9,680 bases of DNA from an uncultured Clostridia bacterium (GTDB lineage Bacteria > Bacillota > Clostridia > TANB77 > CAG-508). A program made the translations under genes and the position numbers. Within the stretch, counting starts at the first letter, position 1; the number at the start of each line of letters is the position of its first letter. The notes under the pieces are model-generated. The model made no database searches, was not told where the DNA came from, and saw only the letters and a list, made by a program, of their open reading frames with translations. This document shows, one piece after another, positions 289-9,680 of the stretch. The DNA is taken from assembly GCA_944392435.1 (NCBI GenBank), contig CALXWQ010000098.1:1-9680 (forward strand). Reading direction: 5' to 3'.

Positions 289-2727
289 ATGGAAGAAAAT
301 GAAGGAAAAATTATTGAAAGAAACATTGAAACAGAGATGAAAAACTCATATATTGACTATGCAATGAGTGTTATAGTTTCTCGTGCACTTCCAGATGTAA
401 GAGATGGTTTAAAACCAGTACATAGAAGAATTCTATATGCTATGTATGAAGATGGTATTACATCAGATAAGCCATATAGAAAAAGTGCTAATACAGTAGG
501 TTCTGTTTTAGGAAGATACCATCCACATGGAGATTCATCAGTTTATGATGCTATGGTAAGAATGGCACAAGATTTCTCACTTAGATATCCTTTGATTGAT
601 GGACATGGAAACTTTGGTTCAGTAGATGGTGATGCTCCAGCTGCTATGAGGTATACAGAAGCTAGAATGTCAAAAATTGCCGAGACAATGCTTACTGATA
701 TAGAGAAAAATACAGTTGATTTTATGCCAAACTATGATGATAGATTACAAGAGCCAACTGTTTTACCAGCAAAAATACCAACACTTTTAATTAATGGTTC
801 ATCAGGTATTGCGGTAGGTATGGCAACTAATATACCACCACATAATTTAACAGAAGTCATAAACGGTATTGTTAAAATAATAGATGATGACAATGTTACA
901 GATGAACAATTAATGGGAATAATAAAAGGACCTGATTTCCCAACAGAGGGATTAATTTTAGGTAGAGAAGGTATAAAACAAGCATATACAACAGGTAGAG
1001 GAAAAATAACAATGAGAGCTGAGACAGAGATAGAAGAAATGAGCGGAAATAAGCAAAGAATTATTGTTAGATCTTTACCTTATCAAGTTAATAAAGCAAA
1101 ATTAATTGAAAACATAGCTAACCTAGTAAAAGAGAAGAGAATTGAAGGAATATCAGAGGTAAGAGATGAATCTGATAGAGAAGAAAAAGTAAGAGTAGTA
1201 ATTGAATTAAAAAGAGATGTAAATGCTCAAGTTATTTTGAATCAATTATTTAAATTTACACAAATGCAAGATACATTTGGAGTTATAATGCTAGCATTGG
1301 TTGACGGAGAACCAAAAATTTTAACTTTGAGACAATGTTTAGAGTATTATATAGACCATAGAAAAACAGTTATTCTTCGTAGAACTCAATTTGACTTAGA
1401 TAAAGCATTAGCTAGAGCACATATTTTAGAGGGATTAAAAATAGCATTAGACAATATTGATGAAGTTATTGAAATAATCAGAAATTCATATGATGATGCT
1501 AAAGAAAGATTAATGGAAAGATTTGGACTTTCAGACATCCAAGCTCAAGCCATACTAGACATGAGATTAAAGACTTTATCAGGTTTACAACGTGAAAAAA
1601 TTGAAGAAGAATATGCTGAATTAATGAAATTAATTGAGCATTTAAGAGCAATACTTGCAAGTGACAAACTTGTTTATGATATTATTAAAGAAGAATTACT
1701 AGAAATAAAAGATAAATATGGTGACGAAAGAAAGACAAAAATAGTTGCAGCAGAAGGAGAATTTGATGTAGAAGACTTAATAAAGGAAGAACAATGTGTA
1801 GTTGCCCTAACTCATTTTGGTTATGTAAAGAGAATGCCAATTGATACATATAAGAGCCAAAAACGAGGAGGAAAGGGAATAACAGGAATTGCAACTAGAG
1901 AAGAGGACTTTGTAAAACAAATCTTTACATGTTCAACTCATGATACTATATTATTCTTTAGTAATAAGGGAAAGGTATATAGATTAAGAGGATATGAAAT
2001 TCCGGAAGCTGGCAGAACTGCTAAAGGTACAGCTATAGTAAATTTATTGATGTTAGATGGAGGAGAGAAAATTTCAGCAGTTATACCTATTGCTAATTTT
2101 GCAGAAGGAAAATATTTATTAATGGGTACGAAAAATGGAATAATCAAGAAAACAGCACTTAATGAATATATGTCTGTAAGAAAGAGTGGTTTAATAGGAA
2201 TAACATTAAAGGACGAAGATGAGTTAATTCAAGTAAGACTAACAGATGGAGAAGATAATGTAGTACTTGTTACTCATAAAGGAATGTGCATTACATTTGA
2301 TGAAAAAGATGTAAGACCAATGGGCAGAGTATCTCAAGGTGTTATTGGTATTAGATTAGATGAAGGAGATTTTGTAATAGGAATGGAATCTATTATCCAA
2401 GGAAGTAAAGCAACTCTTCTTACAATAACAGAGAATGGATTTGGTAAAAGAACAGAACTAGATGAATATAGAGTGCAAACAAGAGGCGGAAAAGGTGTAA
2501 CAACATATAAAGTTACTCCAAAAACTGGAAATCTTGTAGGAATAAGAATTGCAACAGATGATGAAGATGTAATGCTTATAACAGACACAGGAACTATAAT
2601 AAGATTAAAAGTTGCAGACATTAGTGTACTCGGACGCTCAACACAAGGCGTAACTTTAATGAGAACTAATGAAGGAAAAGTTGTAAGTATTGAGACAATT
2701 CCTATGGAAGAAAAGCAAGAAGAATAG
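289..2727 (+). CDS. gyrA: DNA gyrase subunit A
   Basis: 812-aa ORF with the N-terminal signature [33 protein letters not shown]. The QRDR reads [10 protein letters not shown] and the catalytic Tyr lies in [10 protein letters not shown]. The C-terminal beta-pinwheel repeats include the GyrA-box QKRGGKG, which separates GyrA from ParC. Confidence 0.97.
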
Positions 2728-2918: not shown

Positions 2919-3920
2919 TTAATTCCTTTTTTTAAATCGTATATCATCTCCAAAGAAATAACAAATGTCATAATTGCCTACAAGTCTAGAGATAATACGT
3001 TCATCGTAATTTGAGTATAAATTTTTTAAAGTTAAATTAGTTGATATAATTGTTTTGGTAATTTTATTTTGATTTAATAAACGTGTATTAATTACATTAA
3101 AAAGTTCAGTAAATTTCATATTATTAATGCATTCTGTGCCTAAATCATCTATAATTAATAAATCTACATTTAGAATATTATCTATAATGTTAGTTGATTT
3201 AGTTTTTCCGAACCTGTAATCTATGATTGTATCTAACATAACTGGTGCTGTTTGATAAAGTACATTCTTTCCAGTTTTCAAAATTTCATTTGCTATACAA
3301 CTTGATAAAAATGTTTTTCCAAGACCAGTATTACCAGTAAATAATAAATTCTTTTGCTCTTTATCATCAAAATTCTCAATAAATTTTAAACAAATATCTT
3401 TTATTATATTAATATTTTTTCTAGGAGAAATTTTGGAGTGATATTTTTCTTCATTTACCTCATCAGAATATAATAAATCGGTAAAATTATTAAAATTTTG
3501 TGTATCCAAATTTGTAATATTAGCCTTATTATATAATTCATTGTATAATTTTTGCTTTAAGCAAGCACACATAGAAGTAGTATAATCATCATTAGTAATA
3601 TATCCAGTATCCTTACATATATTACAATCATATTTGGGCTTAAAATAATCACTTGGGATGTAGATTTTTTTTAAAAAGTTTTCTTTTTCTTGTTTAAGCT
3701 CAATAATATTTTTATTTAACTCATCTAATAATTTTTTATCATTATTACTAATAAGTGATTTAGTAGTAGAAATAGCAAGAGATGCTAGCTTATCATCTAT
3801 TTGTTGAAGTTTAGGATAATTTCTATATAATTCTTGTTTCCTTTGCTCAGCTTCAAGTTCTACACTGGCTTTCTTTTTAGAATACTGAGCTAATATTTCT
3901 TTTAAAACTGTATCTGCCAT
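2919..3920 (-). CDS. Replicative helicase loader, DnaC/DnaI (IstB-like AAA+) family
   Basis: Walker A is GNTGLGKTF, Walker B is LLIIDDLG, and a downstream STNL...RIISRL motif is typical of DnaC/DnaI/IstB. The N-terminus has a coiled-coil-like region and a Cys cluster (CNICKDTGY...CAC) resembling the DnaI zinc-binding N-domain. The SD AAAGGAG (3929-3935) sits 8 nt before the ATG at 3920. The track start at 3923 is an in-frame TTG one codon upstream. Confidence 0.85.
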   Translation of the reverse strand: MADTVLKEILAQYSKKKASVELEAEQRKQELYRNYPKLQQIDDKLASLAISTTKSLISNNDKKLLDELNKNIIELKQEKENFLKKIYIPSDYFKPKYDCNICKDTGYITNDDYTTSMCACLKQKLYNELYNKANITNLDTQNFNNFTDLLYSDEVNEEKYHSKISPRKNINIIKDICLKFIENFDDKEQKNLLFTGNTGLGKTFLSSCIANEILKTGKNVLYQTAPVMLDTIIDYRFGKTKSTNIIDNILNVDLLIIDDLGTECINNMKFTELFNVINTRLLNQNKITKTIISTNLTLKNLYSNYDERIISRLVGNYDICYFFGDDIRFKKRN

Positions 3921-4000
3921 CAATATTACTCCTTTAATTTTTTTATATCATAGTTTTATATTGTAACAAAAAAATGAAATATATCATATAATAAAATATT

Positions 4001-4966
4001 TTATTTTATATTTGCATATAAACTATCAAAATTGTCATAAGTTCTTTGCTCATATTTATCATAACCAGTTTCTTTTTCCAATTTCTTTATATTTTTATTT
4101 TTTTCCTTCATATTTTTTAAAAATGCTTGAACCTCATCTGCAGTTTTAAATCCTCTCGAATGCCAATCTGTTAATAATTTGTCTAAATATTCAAAATTAG
4201 GGTTAGCTTTTGAAGTGGTTTTCTTTAACGCAATTTCAATTATATCCATACCATACCCATAATCTATATTCCATCTTTCAATATAACCATGTTCATATTG
4301 CGTAAGAGGACGAGTAAGTCCCAATTTTTTTGATATGGATTTTTTTATAATATTAAGTTTCTCTTGTTTCTGATAGTATATGTCTAAATCATTGAAAGTC
4401 TTAACGTTATTCTGGCTCCATGCTTCTGCAACTGTTTGAACATAATTTTTATGAAGAGCTGATCTATCAAAACAATAACTAAATAAAGCTATCATAACTT
4501 CTTCATCAAAATTATATTTTTTAAACCATAATTCAATTTCTGGATACCAGGTAGTAGGCATAAGTCCAGAAAAGAATTTATTATTAATATGCTCTATAGC
4601 TTTAGCACGTTTTTGATTTTCAGTTGATTTTTGCAATTGTTCAGCAGATAAAGCAGTTTTGGGTTTATATAATTTGTGTAATTCTATTTCTTGCATATTG
4701 TTTATAATATAACCAGTATTTTTTTTCGTTAATAAACCTTGTTCTTCCCAATATTTCACAGCATCTTGAATTGTTTTTAGAGGAAGTACTAGTTTCTTAG
4801 ATAAATCATTTACTTTAATATCTTTGTCATATTTCGACAAAAATACCATATATAAATATACTTTTATAAAGTCACCACTAGCCTCAGATAAATATTCAGA
4901 AAAGAATATATCAGGTATTAAAGTATTGGAAAATAGTGATGATAAGTCTGCATTTTCTAATTTCAT
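4001..4966 (-). CDS. DnaD-domain replication initiation / helicase-loading protein (B. subtilis DnaB/DnaD-like architecture)
   Basis: An N-terminal winged-helix-like region (FIKVYLYMVFLS...LKTIQDAVKYWEEQGLL) precedes two DnaD/DnaB_2-type repeats. These are WYPEIELWFKKYNFDEEVMIALFSYC...TVAEAWSQNNVKT and YIERWNIDYGYGMDIIEIAL...YLDKLLTDWHSRGFKT. The SD GGGGGG lies 8 nt before the ATG. The gene sits directly upstream of, and co-oriented with, the loader gene. Confidence 0.8.
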   Translation of the reverse strand: MKLENADLSSLFSNTLIPDIFFSEYLSEASGDFIKVYLYMVFLSKYDKDIKVNDLSKKLVLPLKTIQDAVKYWEEQGLLTKKNTGYIINNMQEIELHKLYKPKTALSAEQLQKSTENQKRAKAIEHINNKFFSGLMPTTWYPEIELWFKKYNFDEEVMIALFSYCFDRSALHKNYVQTVAEAWSQNNVKTFNDLDIYYQKQEKLNIIKKSISKKLGLTRPLTQYEHGYIERWNIDYGYGMDIIEIALKKTTSKANPNFEYLDKLLTDWHSRGFKTADEVQAFLKNMKEKNKNIKKLEKETGYDKYEQRTYDNFDSLYANIK

Positions 4967-4998
4967 TGTAAAATCCCCCCTATAAAAGTATAAATAGA

Positions 4999-5027
4999 AT
5001 TATATCATTTTAAGGAATGATTTACAA
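4999..5027 (-). promoter_or_regulatory. Strong candidate sigma-A promoter for the dnaD-like/loader operon
   Basis: On the minus strand: TTGTAA (5027-5022), 17-nt spacer, extended -10 TGaTATAAT (TATAAT at 5004-4999). It lies about 33 nt upstream of the ATG at 4966. Confidence 0.55.
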
Positions 5028-5104
5028 TTGTTAAAATATAAAAAAATGATAGAAAAATGTAGAAAAAGCAAGATAAATCATAAAAATTAAATGATAATGA
5101 TTAA

Positions 5105-5389
5105 TTAATATTTTTTATATAAATATATTTTAGGAGACCTAATATAATTATAAATGTAGGCTAATATATATATAAATCTTTCGTGATTAAAACCAATTAT
5201 ACTTATTAATGCTAATGGGAGAAAAAGTACTATAAATATAGCTATTTTAAAAGTAATACTAGGAATAAAAATATAAACAAAAGCAAAAATAATTAATCCC
5301 CACACTATATTTAAAATTAAAGTCGTATAATCAATAAATCCTAGTAGTTTTGCCTTAAAGTTATAATTTTGTGGAAAAATAAATTTCAT
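5105..5389 (-). CDS. PrgI/TcpE-family (VirB3-like) small T4SS membrane protein
   Basis: 94 aa. A short N-terminal cytoplasmic stretch (NYNFKAKLLGF) precedes two long hydrophobic helices. The basic/aromatic tail (GFNHERFIYILAYIYNYIRSPKIYLYKKY) fits the pattern I associate with PrgI/TcpE proteins. The gene lies immediately downstream of a VirB6-like gene, as prgI does after prgH. The SD AAGGA is 8 nt before the ATG. The family call is made by eye, not by alignment. Confidence 0.5.
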   Translation of the reverse strand: MKFIFPQNYNFKAKLLGFIDYTTLILNIVWGLIIFAFVYIFIPSITFKIAIFIVLFLPLALISIIGFNHERFIYILAYIYNYIRSPKIYLYKKY

Positions 5390-5443
5390 ATAATCAATCC
5401 TTGTAAATAAATTTAGGTTTTTAAGAACCTATAAACTTTTATT

Positions 5444-5482
5444 GTTACTATTCATAGAAAAAAATAATCTATGAATAGTAAC
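5444..5482. repeat. Perfect 14-bp inverted repeat (hairpin) between the VirB6-like and VirB3-like genes
   Basis: GTTACTATTCATAG (5444-5457) and CTATGAATAGTAAC (5469-5482) flank an 11-nt A-rich loop. The repeat begins 7 nt downstream of the VirB6-like stop on the minus strand. No clean U-tract follows it in the minus-strand orientation. Confidence 0.8.
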
Positions 5483-5488
5483 TTATAA

Positions 5489-6382
5489 TTATAAACTTCC
5501 TTTATTTTTTAGAAAACTTAAATTAGTAGAAATATCAGTAGAAATACCGCCGATAAAATGTTGAACATATGAATTACCTTTTATTAGAGCATATAGTGAG
5601 CCAATACATAATAGTTTAGATACTAATTCTGAACTATCAAAGTCAATAGCAAATATTATTAGCAATACAATAGAAATAAAAATTTCAATAAATAATAATG
5701 AAATAAATATTTTTAGCCAAGCTTTAAAAAAGCAAGATGTAGAATTATTTATTAGAGTCAAAAATGCAAAAGGTGTTAAAAATATCAAAACTTGAATCAT
5801 AATATATCTTAAGGAATAAGAAAATAATAGATTTATAAAATTAAAAGATATAAGGCTTCTAATTAAACCATCAAGAGAAAACACATTAAAAGAAGTATTT
5901 TCTATAGTTATTATATCATTTAAATTTTGAATTAAATTAGAGAATGATATTTCATTTCCAAGTACATCTTGCCCCACATCTCTTATTGCAGCAGCGATTA
6001 AAGACGGAAAATAAACTAGAAGTTCACATATAAATTTAGAAAAATTAATACATATAGCAAATATTAATAATTTAAAAACAAATTGGTAGGGCCTTTCTAT
6101 TTGAATTCCAGTAAAATATGAATATAATAATTTAAAACAATAATAAATACTTACAGCCAATAATAAAGAATTAGCAATTATTATTAATCCGTTTCCAGAA
6201 GAAAATTTAAAAATATCATTAATAAAATTTCCATTTAATGAATTTACATCAATGAAAGCTAATTTATCTAATGTACCATATACACTATTATCAATAGAAG
6301 AAAATAAAGTGTTTAGCAAATTATTTATTGTATCTATTATTGCTTGAGATATATTAGATGTGTTAGTAATTACTTCCTCCAA
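5489..6382 (-). CDS. Polytopic (about 6 TM) membrane protein, VirB6/TrbL/PrgH-like T4SS channel component
   Basis: 297 aa with a hydrophilic N-terminal region and then about six hydrophobic segments. Examples are LIIIANSLLLAVSIYY, LLIFAICINFSKFICELLVYF, IMIQVLIFLTPFAFLTLI and IFISLLFIEIFISIVLLIIFAI. It starts with TTG (6382-6380), preceded by a strong SD GGAGGTG (6393-6387). It sits between the VirB2-like and VirB3-like genes. Assignment rests on topology and synteny only. Confidence 0.5.
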   Translation of the reverse strand: MEEVITNTSNISQAIIDTINNLLNTLFSSIDNSVYGTLDKLAFIDVNSLNGNFINDIFKFSSGNGLIIIANSLLLAVSIYYCFKLLYSYFTGIQIERPYQFVFKLLIFAICINFSKFICELLVYFPSLIAAAIRDVGQDVLGNEISFSNLIQNLNDIITIENTSFNVFSLDGLIRSLISFNFINLLFSYSLRYIMIQVLIFLTPFAFLTLINNSTSCFFKAWLKIFISLLFIEIFISIVLLIIFAIDFDSSELVSKLLCIGSLYALIKGNSYVQHFIGGISTDISTNLSFLKNKGSL

Positions 6383-6418
6383 AATGCACCTCCTTACAAT
6401 AAAATATAAAATTAAATT

Positions 6419-6769
6419 TTATTCAACTAAAGATTTAATAGCAGATAAAATTAAATTGATTGCTAAAATAAATCCATATGAAAATAAAGAACCTCTAATT
6501 AATTTTTTAGACATACGAATTCTTTCTTCATCACCAAAACTAAATTTTTTCATAAAAACACCTACACCCACGGCAACAGCAGCTGCTGGTGTGGCAAGTG
6601 TTAATAACCATCCCTCAATATCTTCAAAAGCTGTATTTAATACCTTAACTAATTCTGGGGTATTATCAAAAAGACCTGCATAACTAATATTTATTGAAAA
6701 AGTAAAATATATAATTAATAATAAAAATAATGAATAAATAAAAATAAATTTTTGTTTTGATTTTCTCAT
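6419..6769 (-). CDS. Secreted two-TM small protein, VirB2/TrbC/Maff2-like (pilin-like T4SS subunit)
   Basis: 116 aa. A Sec-type signal peptide (MRKSKQK + FIFIYSLFLLLIIYFTF + SINISYA/G) is followed by a short hydrophilic segment. An Ala/Gly/Val-rich TM (LATPAAAVAVGVGVF), a charged loop (MKKFSFGDEERIRMSKK) and a second TM (GSLFSYGFILAINLILSAI) then follow. This is the canonical VirB2/TrbC layout. Confidence 0.45.
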   Translation of the reverse strand: MRKSKQKFIFIYSLFLLLIIYFTFSINISYAGLFDNTPELVKVLNTAFEDIEGWLLTLATPAAAVAVGVGVFMKKFSFGDEERIRMSKKLIRGSLFSYGFILAINLILSAIKSLVE

Positions 6770-6838
6770 AGTTAATCACATTCCTTTCTAAGGCACAAAT
6801 CTGGTTGGAAAAGAATTAAATTTTGACTAGGAAAACGA

Positions 6839-6887
6839 GTTTAAAATTTATAAGGCGTACTCTGTGTACCATGATTAAATTTTAAAC
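6839..6887 (-). repeat. 12-bp inverted repeat / RNA hairpin inside the 207-nt intergenic gap of the T4SS-like operon
   Basis: GTTTAAAATTTA (6839-6850) is perfectly complementary to TAAATTTTAAAC (6876-6887). The 25-nt loop contains GTAC-N5-GTAC. On the minus-strand RNA the hairpin is followed by UCGUUUUCC. Confidence 0.6.
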
Positions 6888-6924
6888 GATGTTTGACAAC
6901 GTTAAAATTGTAATTATTTTTCAA
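6841..6924 (-). CDS. Candidate 27-aa small ORF (MKNNYNFNVVKHRLKFNHGTQSTPYKF), function unknown
   Basis: A perfect SD AGGAGG (6936-6931) lies 6 nt before TTG (6924-6922). The frame runs for 27 codons to TAA (6843-6841). It is not in the ORF track because it is too short. The same SD-plus-TTG arrangement is used by the neighbouring VirB6-like gene. Confidence 0.25.
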   Translation of the reverse strand: MKNNYNFNVVKHRLKFNHGTQSTPYKF

Positions 6925-6976
6925 CCTTTACCTCCTGTAAAATAAAATTTTATTAGGGTATAAATAAAAAAGCAGT

Positions 6977-8854
6977 CTATTTCTCAAAATATGGTTTTAA
7001 TCTTATCTTTTGTGGTTTCAAAATTTTATTTCCATCTGATAAAAATGATAAAGAGCAAAAATTTTCTAGTTCTTGAGTAAAAAACTTAGTATCGTAAACA
7101 AATTCAAAATAAAGTTGAGTACTTATACTCTCAGATATACTAGAATCTGTAGAATTTAAAGAATTTGTTAAATAACTATAGTTAGTTTCTTTTGCGTTTT
7201 CAGAAATGCTCTTAAAATGTTTTTCCTTATCTTCTTTACCAATCTGCTTTTGAGCACTTTCAATAGTAAAAATATCATCAGTTCTAAACCAAAACTTATT
7301 TACTAAATTTTGAATAATAACATCAACTGAATACTTGTTGTTTAGAGTATTTAATAAAGATGTATAACTTTGAGTTGCAACAATATTTATACATTTTGCC
7401 TCTCTACTTTGAGCATAGAATTCACTGTCAGATAAAGTACAATATTCATGATATTCATCAGATATAAAAGCTACTATCCTTTCTGAATTTTTAAAATTAT
7501 TGGCGAGTCTTGCCATAACTTCAGTTTGAAAATCCAATTTCAAATATGTAGCTATTATTTTAGATAGAATTTTATACTCCGAAATATTCATATTGAGTAC
7601 AACAATTTTTCCTGTATTAATTAAATCTTCAAATCCAAAGAAATTTAGCTCTTCTTCCTTAGGATTAAACGTTTTATATGTTTCATAATCAGAGACGAAT
7701 ACATTAGTAATTCTTGTGATTTCAGATTTTAAAATAGATAAAGTCCTCAAATCTAAGGATAAAAATTCTTTTTGAAAGAAGTTAAGTGAAGAAATTAAGT
7801 TATAAATATCATTATCGGAGAATTCATTATTTGAAAATTTAGACCTTAATATTTTTATTTTTTCTAAATAGTAATTATCAACTGAAATTAATTTATGTAT
7901 TTCTTCAAAAGTGACATATCCATTATTATATAATCTGCACAATTTAATACATTCTGTAAGAATTTGCTCTACTTTATCTAGCCAATAAGATTCACTATTA
8001 TTAGGAGAAAACAAAAGTAAGATAGTTTTTAATCTATGAGCTAAGACAGATGGCTTTAGATTTGGTTTGTGCAAAGGGTTATATTTATATTTCCCACCTA
8101 AATTAATAATAATTAAATCATCTTCTCTTCCACAGTTCTTTGCAAATTCTTGAACCTTTAAATAATAGTTCCCTTTTACATCTAATACGAGCATACCAAT
8201 TTTATTTTTATTATCATTATGAGCAAATTCAATCAATTGCTTTGTAAATGGATACATAGCACTACTGGTTTTTCCAGTACCTATAGTTCCAGTAATCAAT
8301 ATGTTTTGGTATAAACTTTTTTCCGATAAAAAGATAGGCTTTTTGTTATCATAAGAATTACCTACAAACAAATTTAAAGGCTTAAAATTATTATTTATTT
8401 TTTCAAAAGTAAGAAAATATTTATTTTTATTAAAAAACTTATAAGTATTTTCAGAAAAAATATTATTTGACTTTTGATACTTTTCGATATTTTCAAAAAA
8501 TGTATATTTATTTTGGGAAAAATTAAAAAACTTTTTTATGTTTAATTTTGTTTTAATAGTATTTCTAAAATTATTAATTAGAATAAATACATTTTTTAAA
8601 ATTAAAGAGAACACTAAATATATAAAATTTGATATAATAAATGAGGAAAAAATATATGAAAATAAAAAGACAAATTTAATATATTTCCATAGAACTGGAT
8701 TTTTTATGCAAATATCAAAAGGATGTATACCATATGTAATAATCACTGAATTAGAATAAAATATTTCTGAAAATAAATAATATCCTATGAAACAATAAAT
8801 GCATGAAAAAATAATAATAAAGAAAAAACGTTTTATAAAAATACCTCCTAACAA
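6977..8854 (-). CDS. Type IV coupling protein (VirD4/TraD/TrwB-like, membrane-anchored ATPase)
   Basis: 625 aa with two N-terminal TM helices (FFFIIIFSCIYCFIGYYLF and FVFLFSYIFSSFIISNFIYLVFSLIL). Walker A is GTIGTGKT (nt 8290-8267), followed by MLVLDVKGNYY and YNPL motifs. An all-alpha insert precedes a Walker B-like RIVAFISDEYHEY, then REAKCINIVATQSYTSL and FRTDD. These elements appear in the order typical of TrwB/TraD/VirD4. The start is uncertain (see findings). Confidence 0.8.
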   Translation of the reverse strand: MLGGIFIKRFFFIIIFSCIYCFIGYYLFSEIFYSNSVIITYGIHPFDICIKNPVLWKYIKFVFLFSYIFSSFIISNFIYLVFSLILKNVFILINNFRNTIKTKLNIKKFFNFSQNKYTFFENIEKYQKSNNIFSENTYKFFNKNKYFLTFEKINNNFKPLNLFVGNSYDNKKPIFLSEKSLYQNILITGTIGTGKTSSAMYPFTKQLIEFAHNDNKNKIGMLVLDVKGNYYLKVQEFAKNCGREDDLIIINLGGKYKYNPLHKPNLKPSVLAHRLKTILLLFSPNNSESYWLDKVEQILTECIKLCRLYNNGYVTFEEIHKLISVDNYYLEKIKILRSKFSNNEFSDNDIYNLISSLNFFQKEFLSLDLRTLSILKSEITRITNVFVSDYETYKTFNPKEEELNFFGFEDLINTGKIVVLNMNISEYKILSKIIATYLKLDFQTEVMARLANNFKNSERIVAFISDEYHEYCTLSDSEFYAQSREAKCINIVATQSYTSLLNTLNNKYSVDVIIQNLVNKFWFRTDDIFTIESAQKQIGKEDKEKHFKSISENAKETNYSYLTNSLNSTDSSISESISTQLYFEFVYDTKFFTQELENFCSLSFLSDGNKILKPQKIRLKPYFEK

Positions 8855-8932
8855 AATTAATTATTGAAAAATTTAGACTTAAGATTTAATTTAGAACCTT
8901 GTAAATTATGAAAAAATTTATTATTGAAAAAT
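8853..8932. repeat. Two copies of a 20-nt direct repeat (19/20 identical), spaced 60 bp
   Basis: AAAATTAATTATTGAAAAAT (8853-8872) and AAAATTTATTATTGAAAAAT (8913-8932). The first copy overlaps the annotated TTG start of the coupling-protein gene. Both lie between the candidate promoter and that gene. Confidence 0.7.
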
Positions 8933-9015
8933 AAGTAAATTGTATAAAGAGTAATAAAAAGATGAATAATAAAAAATATAAAGAATAAATCAATTCTGCT
9001 GAAAATAAACACCAC
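8857..9015 (-). CDS. Candidate small hydrophobic ORF (about 50 aa) upstream of the coupling-protein gene
   Basis: The minus-strand frame is open from GTG (9015-9013) to TAA (8859-8857). It reads VFIFSRIDLFFIFFIIHLFITLYTIYLFFNNKFFHNLQGSKLNLKSKFFNN, which contains one TM-like segment. The SD-like GGAAGGTGG overlaps the GTG, and an in-frame ATT follows 6 nt after it. The stop lies 2 nt before the T4CP TTG. The start is unclear and the sequence is AT-biased, so this is weak. Confidence 0.15.
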   Translation of the reverse strand: MVFIFSRIDLFFIFFIIHLFITLYTIYLFFNNKFFHNLQGSKLNLKSKFFNN

Positions 9016-9032
9016 CTTCCAAATTTTTATAA

Positions 9033-9061
9033 ATAATACAATATTTTTTTCATTTTGTCTA
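9033..9061 (-). promoter_or_regulatory. Candidate promoter for the minus-strand T4SS-like operon
   Basis: On the minus strand: TAGACA (9061-9056), 17-nt spacer, TATTAT (9038-9033). It lies just upstream of the GGAAGGTGG SD-like element. Many alternative hexamers exist in this AT-rich spacer. Confidence 0.3.
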
Positions 9062-9076
9062 TACTTTTTTTGAAAT

Positions 9077-9106
9077 TTGTGGTAAAATTTTAATAATTGT
9101 TATAAT
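9077..9106 (+). promoter_or_regulatory. Candidate promoter for the DUF1858 gene
   Basis: Extended -10 TGtTATAAT (9098-9106) with a weak -35 TTGTGG (9077-9082) and an 18-nt spacer. It lies 55 nt upstream of the ATG at 9161. The SD AAGGAG (9147-9152) sits 8 nt before that ATG. Confidence 0.4.
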
Positions 9107-9160
9107 TTGTAGTTTTTACTGTTATGAAACTATAAATAAATAAGAAAAGGAGATTTTATA

Positions 9161-9346
9161 ATGAACATCAGTAAAGAAACAAAAATAGGTGAGTTATTAG
9201 AAACTGCACCAGAAAAAGCAGAAATTTTAATGGAGGCAGGTATGCATTGCTTAGGATGCCCAGCATCTCAAGCAGAAACATTAGAAGAAGCTTGTGAAGT
9301 ACACGGAATAGATGTAGAAGAATTATTAAAACAACTAAATGCTTAA
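9161..9346 (+). CDS. DUF1858 / hybrid-cluster-protein-associated redox disulfide domain protein
   Basis: 61 aa with the family-typical core GELLETAPEKAEILMEAGMHCLGCPASQAETLEEACEVHGIDVEELL, which includes the CxxC motif. The SD is strong. Confidence 0.85.
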   Translation: MNISKETKIGELLETAPEKAEILMEAGMHCLGCPASQAETLEEACEVHGIDVEELLKQLNA

Positions 9347-9419
9347 ATATACTATAAACTTATTTTTAATAGATTGATAAATATAAGTAAAATACAAGAG
9401 AAAAAGGGATGATGGTGAA

Positions 9420-9680
9420 ATGAAGAAGTCTAAAAAGATTGTTTCAAAAAAAGAGCAGAAAAAGCAAAAAGGTATAACTTTAATTGTTTTAGTAGTAACT
9501 ATAGTTGTAATAATTATTGTTGCTTCTGTTTCATTGGGGTATACATTTGGATTCAATGGATTAATGACTAGAGCTATGCAAGTAGATGAATTTTATTCAA
9601 ATGATACTATTTATACGCAAGAATCGGTATCTAATTTGATTGTACGTATGGATGAAGTAATAAATGAAATAAAGACATAA
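9420..9680 (+). CDS. Small N-terminally anchored protein with a prepilin-like (class III-like) leader
   Basis: 86 aa. A lysine-rich 18-aa leader ending in Gly (MKKSKKIVSKKEQKKQKG) is followed by ITLIVLVVTIVVIIIVA and a hydrophilic C-terminal part. The TAA stop occupies the last 3 nt of the window. It resembles G/(F,I)TLI(E) prepilin N-termini but has Val instead of Glu at +5. Confidence 0.4.
   Translation: MKKSKKIVSKKEQKKQKGITLIVLVVTIVVIIIVASVSLGYTFGFNGLMTRAMQVDEFYSNDTIYTQESVSNLIVRMDEVINEIKT

Follow-up and report, generated by a model that had tools for sequence, protein, structure and literature searches.

We analysed a 9,680-base stretch of contig CALXWQ010000098.1 (here called the window; GC content about 0.25) from an uncultured Clostridia bacterium of the family CAG-508 (order TANB77), which carries a minus-strand set of genes resembling part of a type IV secretion system (T4SS). 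The window likely holds the right arm of a T4SS of the MPF_FATA type that is fixed in the chromosome, vertically inherited, apparently relaxase-less and exapted for a function of the host. This arm encodes a type IV coupling protein (T4CP) together with VirB2-, VirB6- and probable VirB3-like membrane proteins, and VirB4 belongs to a second arm that is located between gyrB and gyrA, outside the window on its left side. We propose that the system was exapted for the host because the apparatus is immobile, occurs throughout the lineage and apparently has no relaxase, and a conjugative element is its most likely source.

An earlier reading made from the window alone (the sequence-only reading) had described four T4SS-like open reading frames (ORFs) on the minus strand, and the ORF list confirmed their coordinates. 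It had also reported that VirB4, relaxase, hydrolase and integrase genes were missing from the window, and none was seen when the window proteins were scanned with Pfam and NCBIfam. Three explanations had been offered: a recently truncated remnant of an ICE (integrative and conjugative element), half of a split system, or a domesticated minimal module driven by the coupling ATPase only. The second agrees with our finding of a VirB4 ATPase and a VirB4 N-domain between gyrB and gyrA. The third survives in part: fixed position, purifying selection and co-divergence with core genes speak for domestication, but VirB4 is present, so the coupling ATPase is not the only one.

VirB4 and the left arm

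Longer contigs of the same organism were found by exact protein-sequence look-up (L006 to L009, 98 to 100% identical to the window in the shared proteins). L006 differs from the window in none of the shared proteins (100% identity), and its position 9713 is the counterpart of window base 1. The gene order in these contigs was recF, remB, gyrB, approximately 1.4 kb without a called gene, a VirB4 ATPase, a ParA-like gene, a gene for a 239-amino-acid (aa) protein, a RelB/ParE pair and gyrA. The VirB4 ATPase gene (614 aa; L006 4826 to 6670, plus strand) stops about 3.0 kb short of window base 1, to its left. It matched the NCBIfam model NF045971 (VirB4-like conjugal transfer ATPase, CD1110 family) with an E value of 7.5e-88 and 295.6 bits over profile positions 170 to 731 of 752, and the score stayed below the cutoff of 325 because the first ~170 profile positions are missing. 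The protein was above the Pfam gathering threshold (GA) for P-loop_TraG (74.8 bits) and AAA_10 (52.5 bits), also matched DUF87, and was 77 to 93% identical between species.

The gyrB-VirB4 spacer could be taken for a stretch without ORFs. We rejected this view, as the spacer holds a VirB4 N-domain frame that has no canonical start. This TraC-like ORF of 193 codons (L006 4021 to 4602, plus strand, about 5.1 to 5.7 kb left of window base 1) matched residues 127 to 285 of the PrgI::VirB4 fusion of Vescimonas with an E value of 1.4e-16 and is, by homology, the N-terminal domain of VirB4, missing from the 614-aa protein. Many related species encode its homologues as separate proteins of 147 to 229 aa, nearly all with a PF26593 TraC-like match, and these genes lie directly between gyrB and the VirB4 ATPase. 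VirB4 is thus present and conserved, in the form of two stably separate genes, one for the N-domain and one for the ATPase.

The sequence-only reading had taken the set for VirB4-less, a view in which a minimal translocation module would be driven by the coupling ATPase only. No VirB4 is encoded inside the 9,680 bases, as that explanation would have it. However, the genes for the N-domain protein and the VirB4 ATPase are located some 3 to 5.7 kb beyond its left edge, and no related locus of sufficient length lacked the ATPase, so that this explanation is refuted. A VirB4 gene just past the window had been named beforehand as the observation that would overturn the claim, and this is where the gene lies. 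The VirB4-less appearance was an artefact of the window edge, since the boundary falls between the two halves of one system. The case also carries a caution for window-based scans, because the apparent loss of a universal ATPase arose from a window boundary.

The other two genes of the left arm, both on the plus strand, encode a 489-aa ParA/MinD-like ATPase and the 239-aa protein (p239), which matched no family. A search of PDB with sequence profiles returned only generic Mrp/MinD ATPases for the ParA-like protein and nothing meaningful for p239; neither protein had a T4SS family or PDB match, a result that does not exclude structural homologues. The spacer of approximately 230 nucleotides (nt) between the TraC-like ORF and the VirB4 gene (L006 4600 to 4830, plus strand) folded into a long imperfect hairpin (-52.1 kcal/mol, z=-4.9) without an Rfam match. 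The orthologous spacer in L121, a locus of another species, is only 85 nt long, and the hairpin therefore looks species specific, as either a palindromic insertion or a structured RNA.

Components of the right arm

The 625-aa product of the gene at 6977 to 8854 (minus strand) is a VirD4/TraD/TrwB-like ATPase. It passed the Pfam GA for TrwB_AAD_bind (36.8 bits, GA 20.5) and TraG-D_C (22.7 bits, GA 22), and it matched NCBIfam SXT_TraD with an E value of 7.7e-10, far under the cutoff of that model. The Walker A motif GTIGTGKT at residue 189 and the Walker B DE of FISDEYHEY were invariant across the family alignment, and two N-terminal hydrophobic segments (residues 1 to 32 and 59 to 96) were kept in 20 orthologues. 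By this predicted architecture the protein is a T4CP, but a divergent one. T4CPs classically couple relaxosomes to the channel.

The T4CP gene starts with TTG at 8854, has no Shine-Dalgarno (SD) sequence and begins 2 nt after the stop codon of a further minus-strand ORF (8857 to 9015), an arrangement that suggests translational coupling of the two genes. This ORF, the first gene of the right arm, had been overlooked when the set was described as four genes. It encodes a 52-aa small membrane protein (p52) with one transmembrane helix and a conserved tail, FHNxQGSKLNLKSK. The frame was open and the sequence conserved in 21 species, with a pN/pS of 0.19 (37 codons, 19 species), and p52 had no family match in Pfam or NCBIfam. 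An AGGAGG within the first T4CP codons was considered as a sign of a non-canonical start further downstream and was rejected, since orthologues encode M-(x)-G-G there.

The gene for the VirB2/TrbC-like T4SS pilin (116 aa; 6419 to 6769, minus strand) was assigned from topology and from a match to PF18895 (T4SS_pilin) below GA (E=2.5e-4; 21.5 bits, GA 26.6). All six homologues scanned matched the T4SS_pilin family, and the most distant of them, from locus L033, exceeded GA with 31.4 bits for T4SS_pilin and 28.7 bits for TrbC. Hydrophobic segments at residues 6 to 34, 53 to 73 and 90 to 115 correspond to a signal-peptide-like N terminus, with the sequence ...ISYA|GLF..., followed by two helices.

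The 297-aa VirB6/TrbL-like polytopic membrane protein (5489 to 6382, minus strand) has multiple transmembrane helices and was recognised through its family and its fold, as the window protein itself had no direct Pfam match. A HMMER scan of 1.84 billion representatives placed 398 clusters in the family at E≤1e-3, and 17 of 53 scanned members matched PF04610 (TrbL/VirB6), the best with an E value of 2.5e-8. An AlphaFold run with 15 close orthologues had given a pLDDT of 47 and was discarded; the rerun with an alignment of 53 diverse representatives reached 87.7. In the Foldseek search of PDB with this model, ranks 1 to 7 and 9 were TrwI/VirB6 chains of R388 (8rtd, 7o3v, 8rt9), and the five best of these matches had a probability of 1.00 and E values of 6e-3 to 2e-2, with modest TM-scores of 0.36 to 0.46. 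A sequence-profile search of PDB with the same family returned nothing meaningful.

The last gene of the arm (5105 to 5389, minus strand) encodes a small membrane protein of 94 aa (p94) with a hydrophobic hairpin at residues 15 to 70. The window protein matched nothing in Pfam or NCBIfam. Three weak but concordant links make it a probable VirB3/PrgI-like protein: one orthologue matched PF12666 (PrgI) with an E value of 0.023, the hidden Markov model of the family reached 18.1 bits against the N terminus of the Vescimonas PrgI::VirB4 fusion in a database of 11 proteins, and tblastn with residues 6 to 94 of that fusion found the 94-aa ORF at E=1e-3. The gene also sits after the VirB6 gene, as in Gram-positive T4SSs.

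The T4SS identities given by the sequence-only reading were therefore firm for the T4CP, the pilin and the VirB6-like protein, where the profile and structure checks it had called for showed similarity to T4SS components (a T4CP above the Pfam GA and a VirB6-like model matching R388 TrwI/VirB6), and only weakly supported for the PrgI-like protein. Its description of the gene arrangement fared less well. The spacers measure 36 to 207 nt, which is not especially tight, and the SD sequences it had called strong came down to one, the AAGGAGG before the VirB6-like gene. A search of PHROGs gave no informative match for any of the four T4SS-like proteins.

Some features of this arm appear to differ between species. 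The T4CP-pilin spacer (6770 to 6976) is 207 nt long here and 36 to 42 nt long in L002 and L004, and it showed no significant structure (z=-1.2). The 99-nt spacer between the VirB6-like gene and p94 contains a perfect 15-bp hairpin (5444 to 5482) and a second hairpin with a T-rich tail on the minus strand (5405 to 5431; z=-5.1). The orthologous spacers in L002 and L004 are 0 to 12 nt long, which makes the hairpin insertion species specific, and the hairpins at 5405 to 5482 may act as an attenuator, a terminator or an mRNA-stability element inside the right arm.

Inheritance at the origin and proposed function

The T4SS is located inside the canonical dnaA-dnaN-recF-gyrB-gyrA origin cluster, 6 to 17 kb from dnaA. 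The left arm, on the plus strand, splits the normally adjacent gyrB and gyrA, and both arms converge on gyrA. In L121 the order reads mnmE-jag-yidC-yidD-rnpA-rpmH / dnaA-dnaN-recF-remB-gyrB-TraC-like-VirB4-ParA-like-p239-(PDDEXK)-gyrA / dnaC-dnaD-p94-p297 and onwards. We scanned one genome per GTDB species, which gave 20 genomes, all labelled uncultured Clostridia or Clostridium sp.; they included one closed chromosome of 1.57 Mb and Clostridium sp. CAG:273 (CAG-273 is classified as Clostridia; TANB77; CAG-508; PMC13508870). A metagenome scan was made with the T4CP alignment. The layout was the same in the 20 species genomes and in about 80 metagenome loci, wherever a locus was long enough to show the order, and the metagenome loci kept it down to 54% T4CP identity and 74 to 83% gyrA identity.

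All recovered orthologous ORFs were intact (13 to 23 loci per gene), which exceeds by far what chance would produce, and the frameshifted, decaying orthologues that the sequence-only reading had listed as contrary evidence were not among them. Median dN/dS values were 0.167 for the T4CP, 0.205 for the pilin-like protein, 0.233 for the VirB6-like protein, 0.196 for p94 and 0.216 for p239, compared with 0.155 for dnaC, 0.082 for dnaD and 0.041 for gyrA. Pairwise dN of the T4SS genes correlated with that of gyrA and dnaD (rho of 0.65 to 0.84; 0.82 for dnaC against gyrA). Together, the fixed position, the intact ORFs, the purifying selection and the co-divergence with core genes support long vertical inheritance. 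The claim that the ORFs were uninterrupted and free of fresh decay was borne out by the intact orthologues and by dN/dS values of 0.17 to 0.23. The accompanying claim, that the genes are as AT-rich as those of the host, was right for dnaC and dnaD (GC of 0.23 to 0.26, against 0.19 to 0.25 for the four T4SS genes) and failed for gyrA, which is higher at 0.32.

These data also bear on the possibility that the locus is an ICE, either a truncated and decaying remnant or an ordinary mobile element with its other genes just outside the window. Its components are homologous to MPF_FATA conjugation genes, with a VirB4 of the CD1110 family, and the spacers carry small variable cargo (the RelB/ParE pair, a PDDEXK_2 gene, an HNH gene and a diversity-generating retroelement cassette). 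However, no relaxase, integrase, VirB8-like or hydrolase family was seen among the genes called within 10 to 20 kb, the rest of the genome lying outside this search, and those genes showed no element boundary. The relaxase and hydrolase genes that the sequence-only reading had thought might lie just beyond the window were thus absent from this interval. The locus occupies the same place inside the dnaA-gyrA cluster in all of the species and metagenome loci mentioned above, its GC content matches the low values of dnaC and dnaD next to it, and a scan of IMG/VR gave a single partial match. Conservation, selection, co-divergence, base composition and the lack of a linked relaxase or integrase led us to reject both the remnant and the mobile ICE as very improbable. 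The recently truncated remnant, the first explanation offered from the window alone, is dismissed on the same grounds: there is no integrase or boundary, the locus is fixed in 20 species, and the ORFs are intact. The IMG/VR match was an 82-residue fragment at the end of a contig (L122 7 to 252), 67% identical to T4CP residues 216 to 297 and without neighbouring genes; this contig may be chimeric or misclassified.

For the exapted T4SS, the steps of a mechanism can be proposed from established T4SS biology. The VirB6-like protein would form the base of the membrane channel, and the VirB3-like protein would tether a VirB4 hexamer whose N-domain would come from a separate protein acting in trans, similar to TrsD/TrsE in pGO1-type systems. 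The VirB2-like protein, its signal peptide processed, would build an extracellular conduit or pilus-like part, and the membrane-anchored T4CP would select and feed the substrate. The proposal of a host function is modelled on the one made for the relaxase-less, origin-proximal T4SS of Patescibacteria.

Several points weigh against this reading. The function is drawn only by analogy: on contact with neighbouring cells, the system would export protein or DNA or exchange it with them. A relaxase, a VirB8-like protein or a hydrolase could be encoded elsewhere in the genome. Relatives of the T4CP occurred on 16 of 72,556 plasmids, the best at 31% identity, and the family profile matched no PDB sequence, and hence no solved T4CP, at E≤0.01; to judge from its sequence, so divergent a T4CP may have a non-canonical role. 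(The gene context of the closest plasmid T4CP, on pSU3 of Agarilytica, was uninformative.) The VirB3/PrgI-like assignment of p94 is a weak one. In the N-domain ORF of the window species, about 150 codons pass without an ATG, GTG or TTG; a GGAGG stands 9 nt before an in-frame ATA, and gene callers left the ORF uncalled in L006 to L009. A protein identical over the shared part of this ORF (P0391) begins with ATG (MTLDK...), and the ORF may therefore use a non-canonical start or have lost its start codon at the strain level.

Three loci with distant VirB6-like proteins showed how far the arrangement extends. L033 (27% identity in the VirB6-like protein) kept the block of T4CP, pilin, VirB6-like, p94-like, DnaD and DnaC genes, with gyrA nearby. 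Two further loci add to the points against the reading: L035 (27%) had only the pilin-like/VirB6-like pair beside a divergent DUF1858 gene, followed by rplM-rpsI, and in L038 (22%) the pair beside DUF1858 was followed by genes for CpaB (SAF), a ParA-like protein and CpaF (T2SSE) at 4613 to 9392. DnaD adjoins the T4SS arm in L033 but not in L035 or L038. The junction of DUF1858 with the VirB2/VirB6 pair is therefore the oldest conserved feature. The two arms in their complete form may be limited to CAG-508-like members of the lineage, and the full set may not be universal in TANB77. The genes after the pair in L038 are a Tad-pilus cluster of the type that has been reported as specific to TANB77 (PMC11680825), and one may ask if the pair is able to cooperate with a machine other than the T4SS.

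The last observations fit an explanation in which the two arms are functionally independent and the right arm, or the T4CP alone, was exapted apart from the VirB4 channel. The arms are on opposite strands with gyrA, dnaC and dnaD between them, the T4CP has diverged strongly from those of plasmids, L035 and L038 have the VirB2/VirB6 pair but no T4CP beside it (in L038 the pair is directly upstream of the Tad pilus cluster), and many T4CP homologues of Patescibacteria lie away from virB4, are non-essential and are suspected of a separate role of this sort (PMC12102498). However, the T4CP, VirB2, VirB6 and VirB3 genes are co-directional and occurred with the VirB4 arm, in the same relative position, at every locus long enough, and no function of VirB3 or VirB6 without VirB4 is known. 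We consider independent arms quite improbable.

A working chromosomal system for DNA transfer, or for DNA release and uptake, is the main rival, less improbable but still unlikely. Here a relaxase or an unconventional DNA-processing enzyme would be encoded elsewhere, the T4CP would deliver chromosomal DNA by way of the channel, and both the origin-proximal position and the linkage to dnaD-dnaC would be functionally meaningful. The T4CP has been retained under purifying selection with intact Walker motifs, its arm adjoins dnaD-dnaC even in L033, the locus lies close to dnaA, and in known systems the T4CP and relaxase genes are often far from virB4 (PMC12102498). On the other side, no relaxase family was detected among the genes called within 10 to 20 kb in any of the loci, the DnaC-like protein is of an ordinary Clostridial type, and the linkage to dnaD-dnaC is not obligatory, as these genes are inverted in one species and absent near the VirB2/VirB6 pair in L035 and L038. 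We keep this option open because the T4CP has been retained and its linkage to dnaD-dnaC is old.

Exaptation for a host function, which we prefer, can be taken one step further, as a tentative suggestion that we consider rather improbable. In the CAG-508 Clostridia, and possibly in TANB77 more widely, the vertically inherited, relaxase-less T4SS of the origin cluster would have been exapted for a contact-dependent task other than conjugation, one that their way of life requires. Such a system would either have converged on the T4SS that epibiotic Patescibacteria need or share an evolutionary link with it. If true, this would indicate that these bacteria live in dependence on a partner, which could be the reason for their resistance to cultivation.

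Known systems and neighbouring genes

The closest known analogue is the T4SS of Patescibacteria, which is derived from MPF_FATA, chromosomal and mostly relaxase-less, with VirB2-, VirB3- and VirB6-like proteins (Quinonero-Coronel et al. 2025, PMC12102498). Its most abundant component is TrsD, a homologue of the VirB4 N terminus, and in several classes its genes are next to dnaA, dnaN, rnpA and rpmH (PMC12102498). T4SS genes are essential for the epibiotic growth of Ca. Southlakia epibionticum, as cited in PMC12102498. The Clostridial system likewise has an MPF_FATA-type VirB4, is chromosomal and lineage-wide, is not on a mobile element and has no relaxase nearby. Both have VirB2-like (PF18895/PF04956) and VirB6-like proteins, a VirB3/PrgI-like protein (a probable one in the Clostridial system) and a separate VirB4 N-domain protein (TrsD there, PF26593 TraC-like here), and both are neighbours of dnaA, dnaN, rnpA and rpmH at the origin. 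Genome reduction is common to the two sets of hosts, and TANB77 and most Patescibacteria are uncultured. This likeness is one of gene content, VirB4 type and position. The systems differ in that the host here is a Clostridium (Bacillota_A, TANB77/CAG-508) and not a member of the candidate phyla radiation, and in the close linkage of the T4CP gene with those for VirB2, VirB6 and VirB3, which is mostly lacking in Patescibacteria. Two convergent arms around gyrA that split gyrB from gyrA, and additional conserved partners (p52, the ParA-like ATPase and p239), also set the Clostridial system apart.

Among MPF_FATA elements of Clostridia (with CD1110-family VirB4 and CD1115-family VirD4, of the CTn2 type), the likeness lies in VirB4, which matches the CD1110 model. 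The cluster on pMM35_02 of Vescimonas fastidiosa is similar too: its VirB4 is 35% identical, and each of the pilin-like, VirB6-like and PrgI-like proteins has a single matching counterpart there, with the gene order unchanged. In these elements, however, VirB3 is fused or adjacent to a full-length VirB4, whereas in the present system three separate genes on two strands encode VirB3, the N-domain of VirB4 and the VirB4 ATPase. The elements have a cell-wall hydrolase and, in ICEs, a relaxase and an integrase, none of which is found nearby here. Their VirD4 is of the T4SS-DNA_transf type, whereas the divergent T4CP described here matched only TrwB_AAD_bind of the two families and its locus is immobile.

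A small VirB4-N homologue next to the VirB4 ATPase is also seen in TrsD-TrsE of pGO1/pSK41-type systems, an MPF_FATA subclass (PMC12102498), a likeness in gene arrangement. Unlike the system here, those are plasmid borne and conjugative and have a relaxase. The rvh system of Rickettsiales is a diderm MPF_T system of intracellular Proteobacteria, and the protein-translocating T4SSs of streptococci are on genomic islands and not fixed in a lineage-wide origin cluster, so that both are unlike the Clostridial system. What rvh and the minimal streptococcal systems share with it is that their genes are dispersed among core genes in chromosomal islands or form a minimal set, and that they serve purposes other than self-transfer (PMC12102498).

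Full-text literature searches found no T4SS described in TANB77 or CAG-508. A paper on a conserved TANB77 pilin was considered as a prior description and rejected, because it concerns a Tad pilus cluster and contains no VirB4, VirD4 or T4SS terms (PMC11680825). That Tad-type cluster is reported to be exclusively conserved in TANB77 (PMC11680825) and resembles the T4SS in belonging to the same order, in being a conserved envelope-spanning machine and in having ParA/TadZ-like ATPases. It differs in its machinery, which consists of CpaB, TadZ/CpaE, CpaF/TadA, TadB/C and type IV pilin-like proteins.

A Gram-positive-type, chromosomally fixed and relaxase-less T4SS near the origin has so far been described as a hallmark of Patescibacteria, where it is essential for epibiotic growth. 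The present case extends the origin-embedded, relaxase-less T4SS to gut Clostridia. The shared design (a split VirB4, VirB2-, VirB6- and, probably, VirB3-like proteins, a T4CP, the lack of a relaxase nearby and a location in the origin cluster, dnaA-gyrB-gyrA in this instance) suggests a recurrent solution in hard-to-culture bacteria with reduced genomes. The substrates of such systems, and the reason for their placement at oriC, can thereby be studied in another, independent lineage. Members of TANB77 are widespread in the human gut, and the order has been linked to how checkpoint immunotherapy turns out (PMC11680825); for these reasons a conserved surface or secretion machine in this order is of practical interest.

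The core genes between the arms are gyrA (289 to 2727, plus strand), a DnaC/DnaI-type helicase loader gene (2919 to 3923, minus strand) and the gene for a DnaD/DnaB_2-type replication initiation protein (4001 to 4966, minus strand; Pfam DnaB_2, E=4e-28). The helicase loader is of the Clostridial PRK06835 type, with 338.6 bits against that NCBIfam model (cutoff 215) and further Pfam matches to IstB_IS21 and Bac_DnaA. In one species (L010 5890 to 7874) dnaD-dnaC is inverted relative to the T4SS genes; this was the sole rearrangement seen, with the remaining order kept, and it argues that dnaD-dnaC are outside the T4SS operon. The dnaD gene probably belongs to a transcription unit separate from that of the T4SS arm. 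Between the convergent gyrA and dnaC, the spacer at 2728 to 2918 folded at -43.8 kcal/mol (z=-6.3) and contains a perfect 22-bp hairpin (2864 to 2911, assigned to no strand), which is likely a bidirectional terminator closing both directions of transcription. This hairpin explains the mirrored short ORFs that start with MEVNEI on both strands.

A scan for promoters was uninformative in such AT-rich DNA (63 sites against 62 expected); the same scan gave no terminators, and the hairpins came from folding. An Rfam scan of the 22-kb context returned three tRNAs only, and the gyrB-VirB4 spacer had no match. At the left end of the window, an ORF on the plus strand (1 to 168) is the tail of a ParE-like toxin gene and the end of a RelB/ParD-ParE toxin-antitoxin pair (L006 9372 to 9880) located between p239 and gyrA. 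The content of this spacer varies, and L002, L004 and L121 have another small gene, a PDDEXK_2 gene or nothing there. To the right of the T4SS arm and divergent from it lies the gene for a DUF1858 protein (9161 to 9346, plus strand), followed by an ORF for an 86-aa protein with a prepilin-like N terminus (9420 to 9680, plus strand). The N-methylation-type sequence KGITLIVLVV of the latter is a weak match (N_methyl, E=0.016), and the gene is outside the T4SS arms and is replaced in other species. One species (L004 5816 to 9488 and L005 96 to 3768) carries beside DUF1858 a diversity-generating retroelement, with a reverse transcriptase and bAvd, together with a gene for a 471-aa protein, and this insertion takes the place of the prepilin-like gene.

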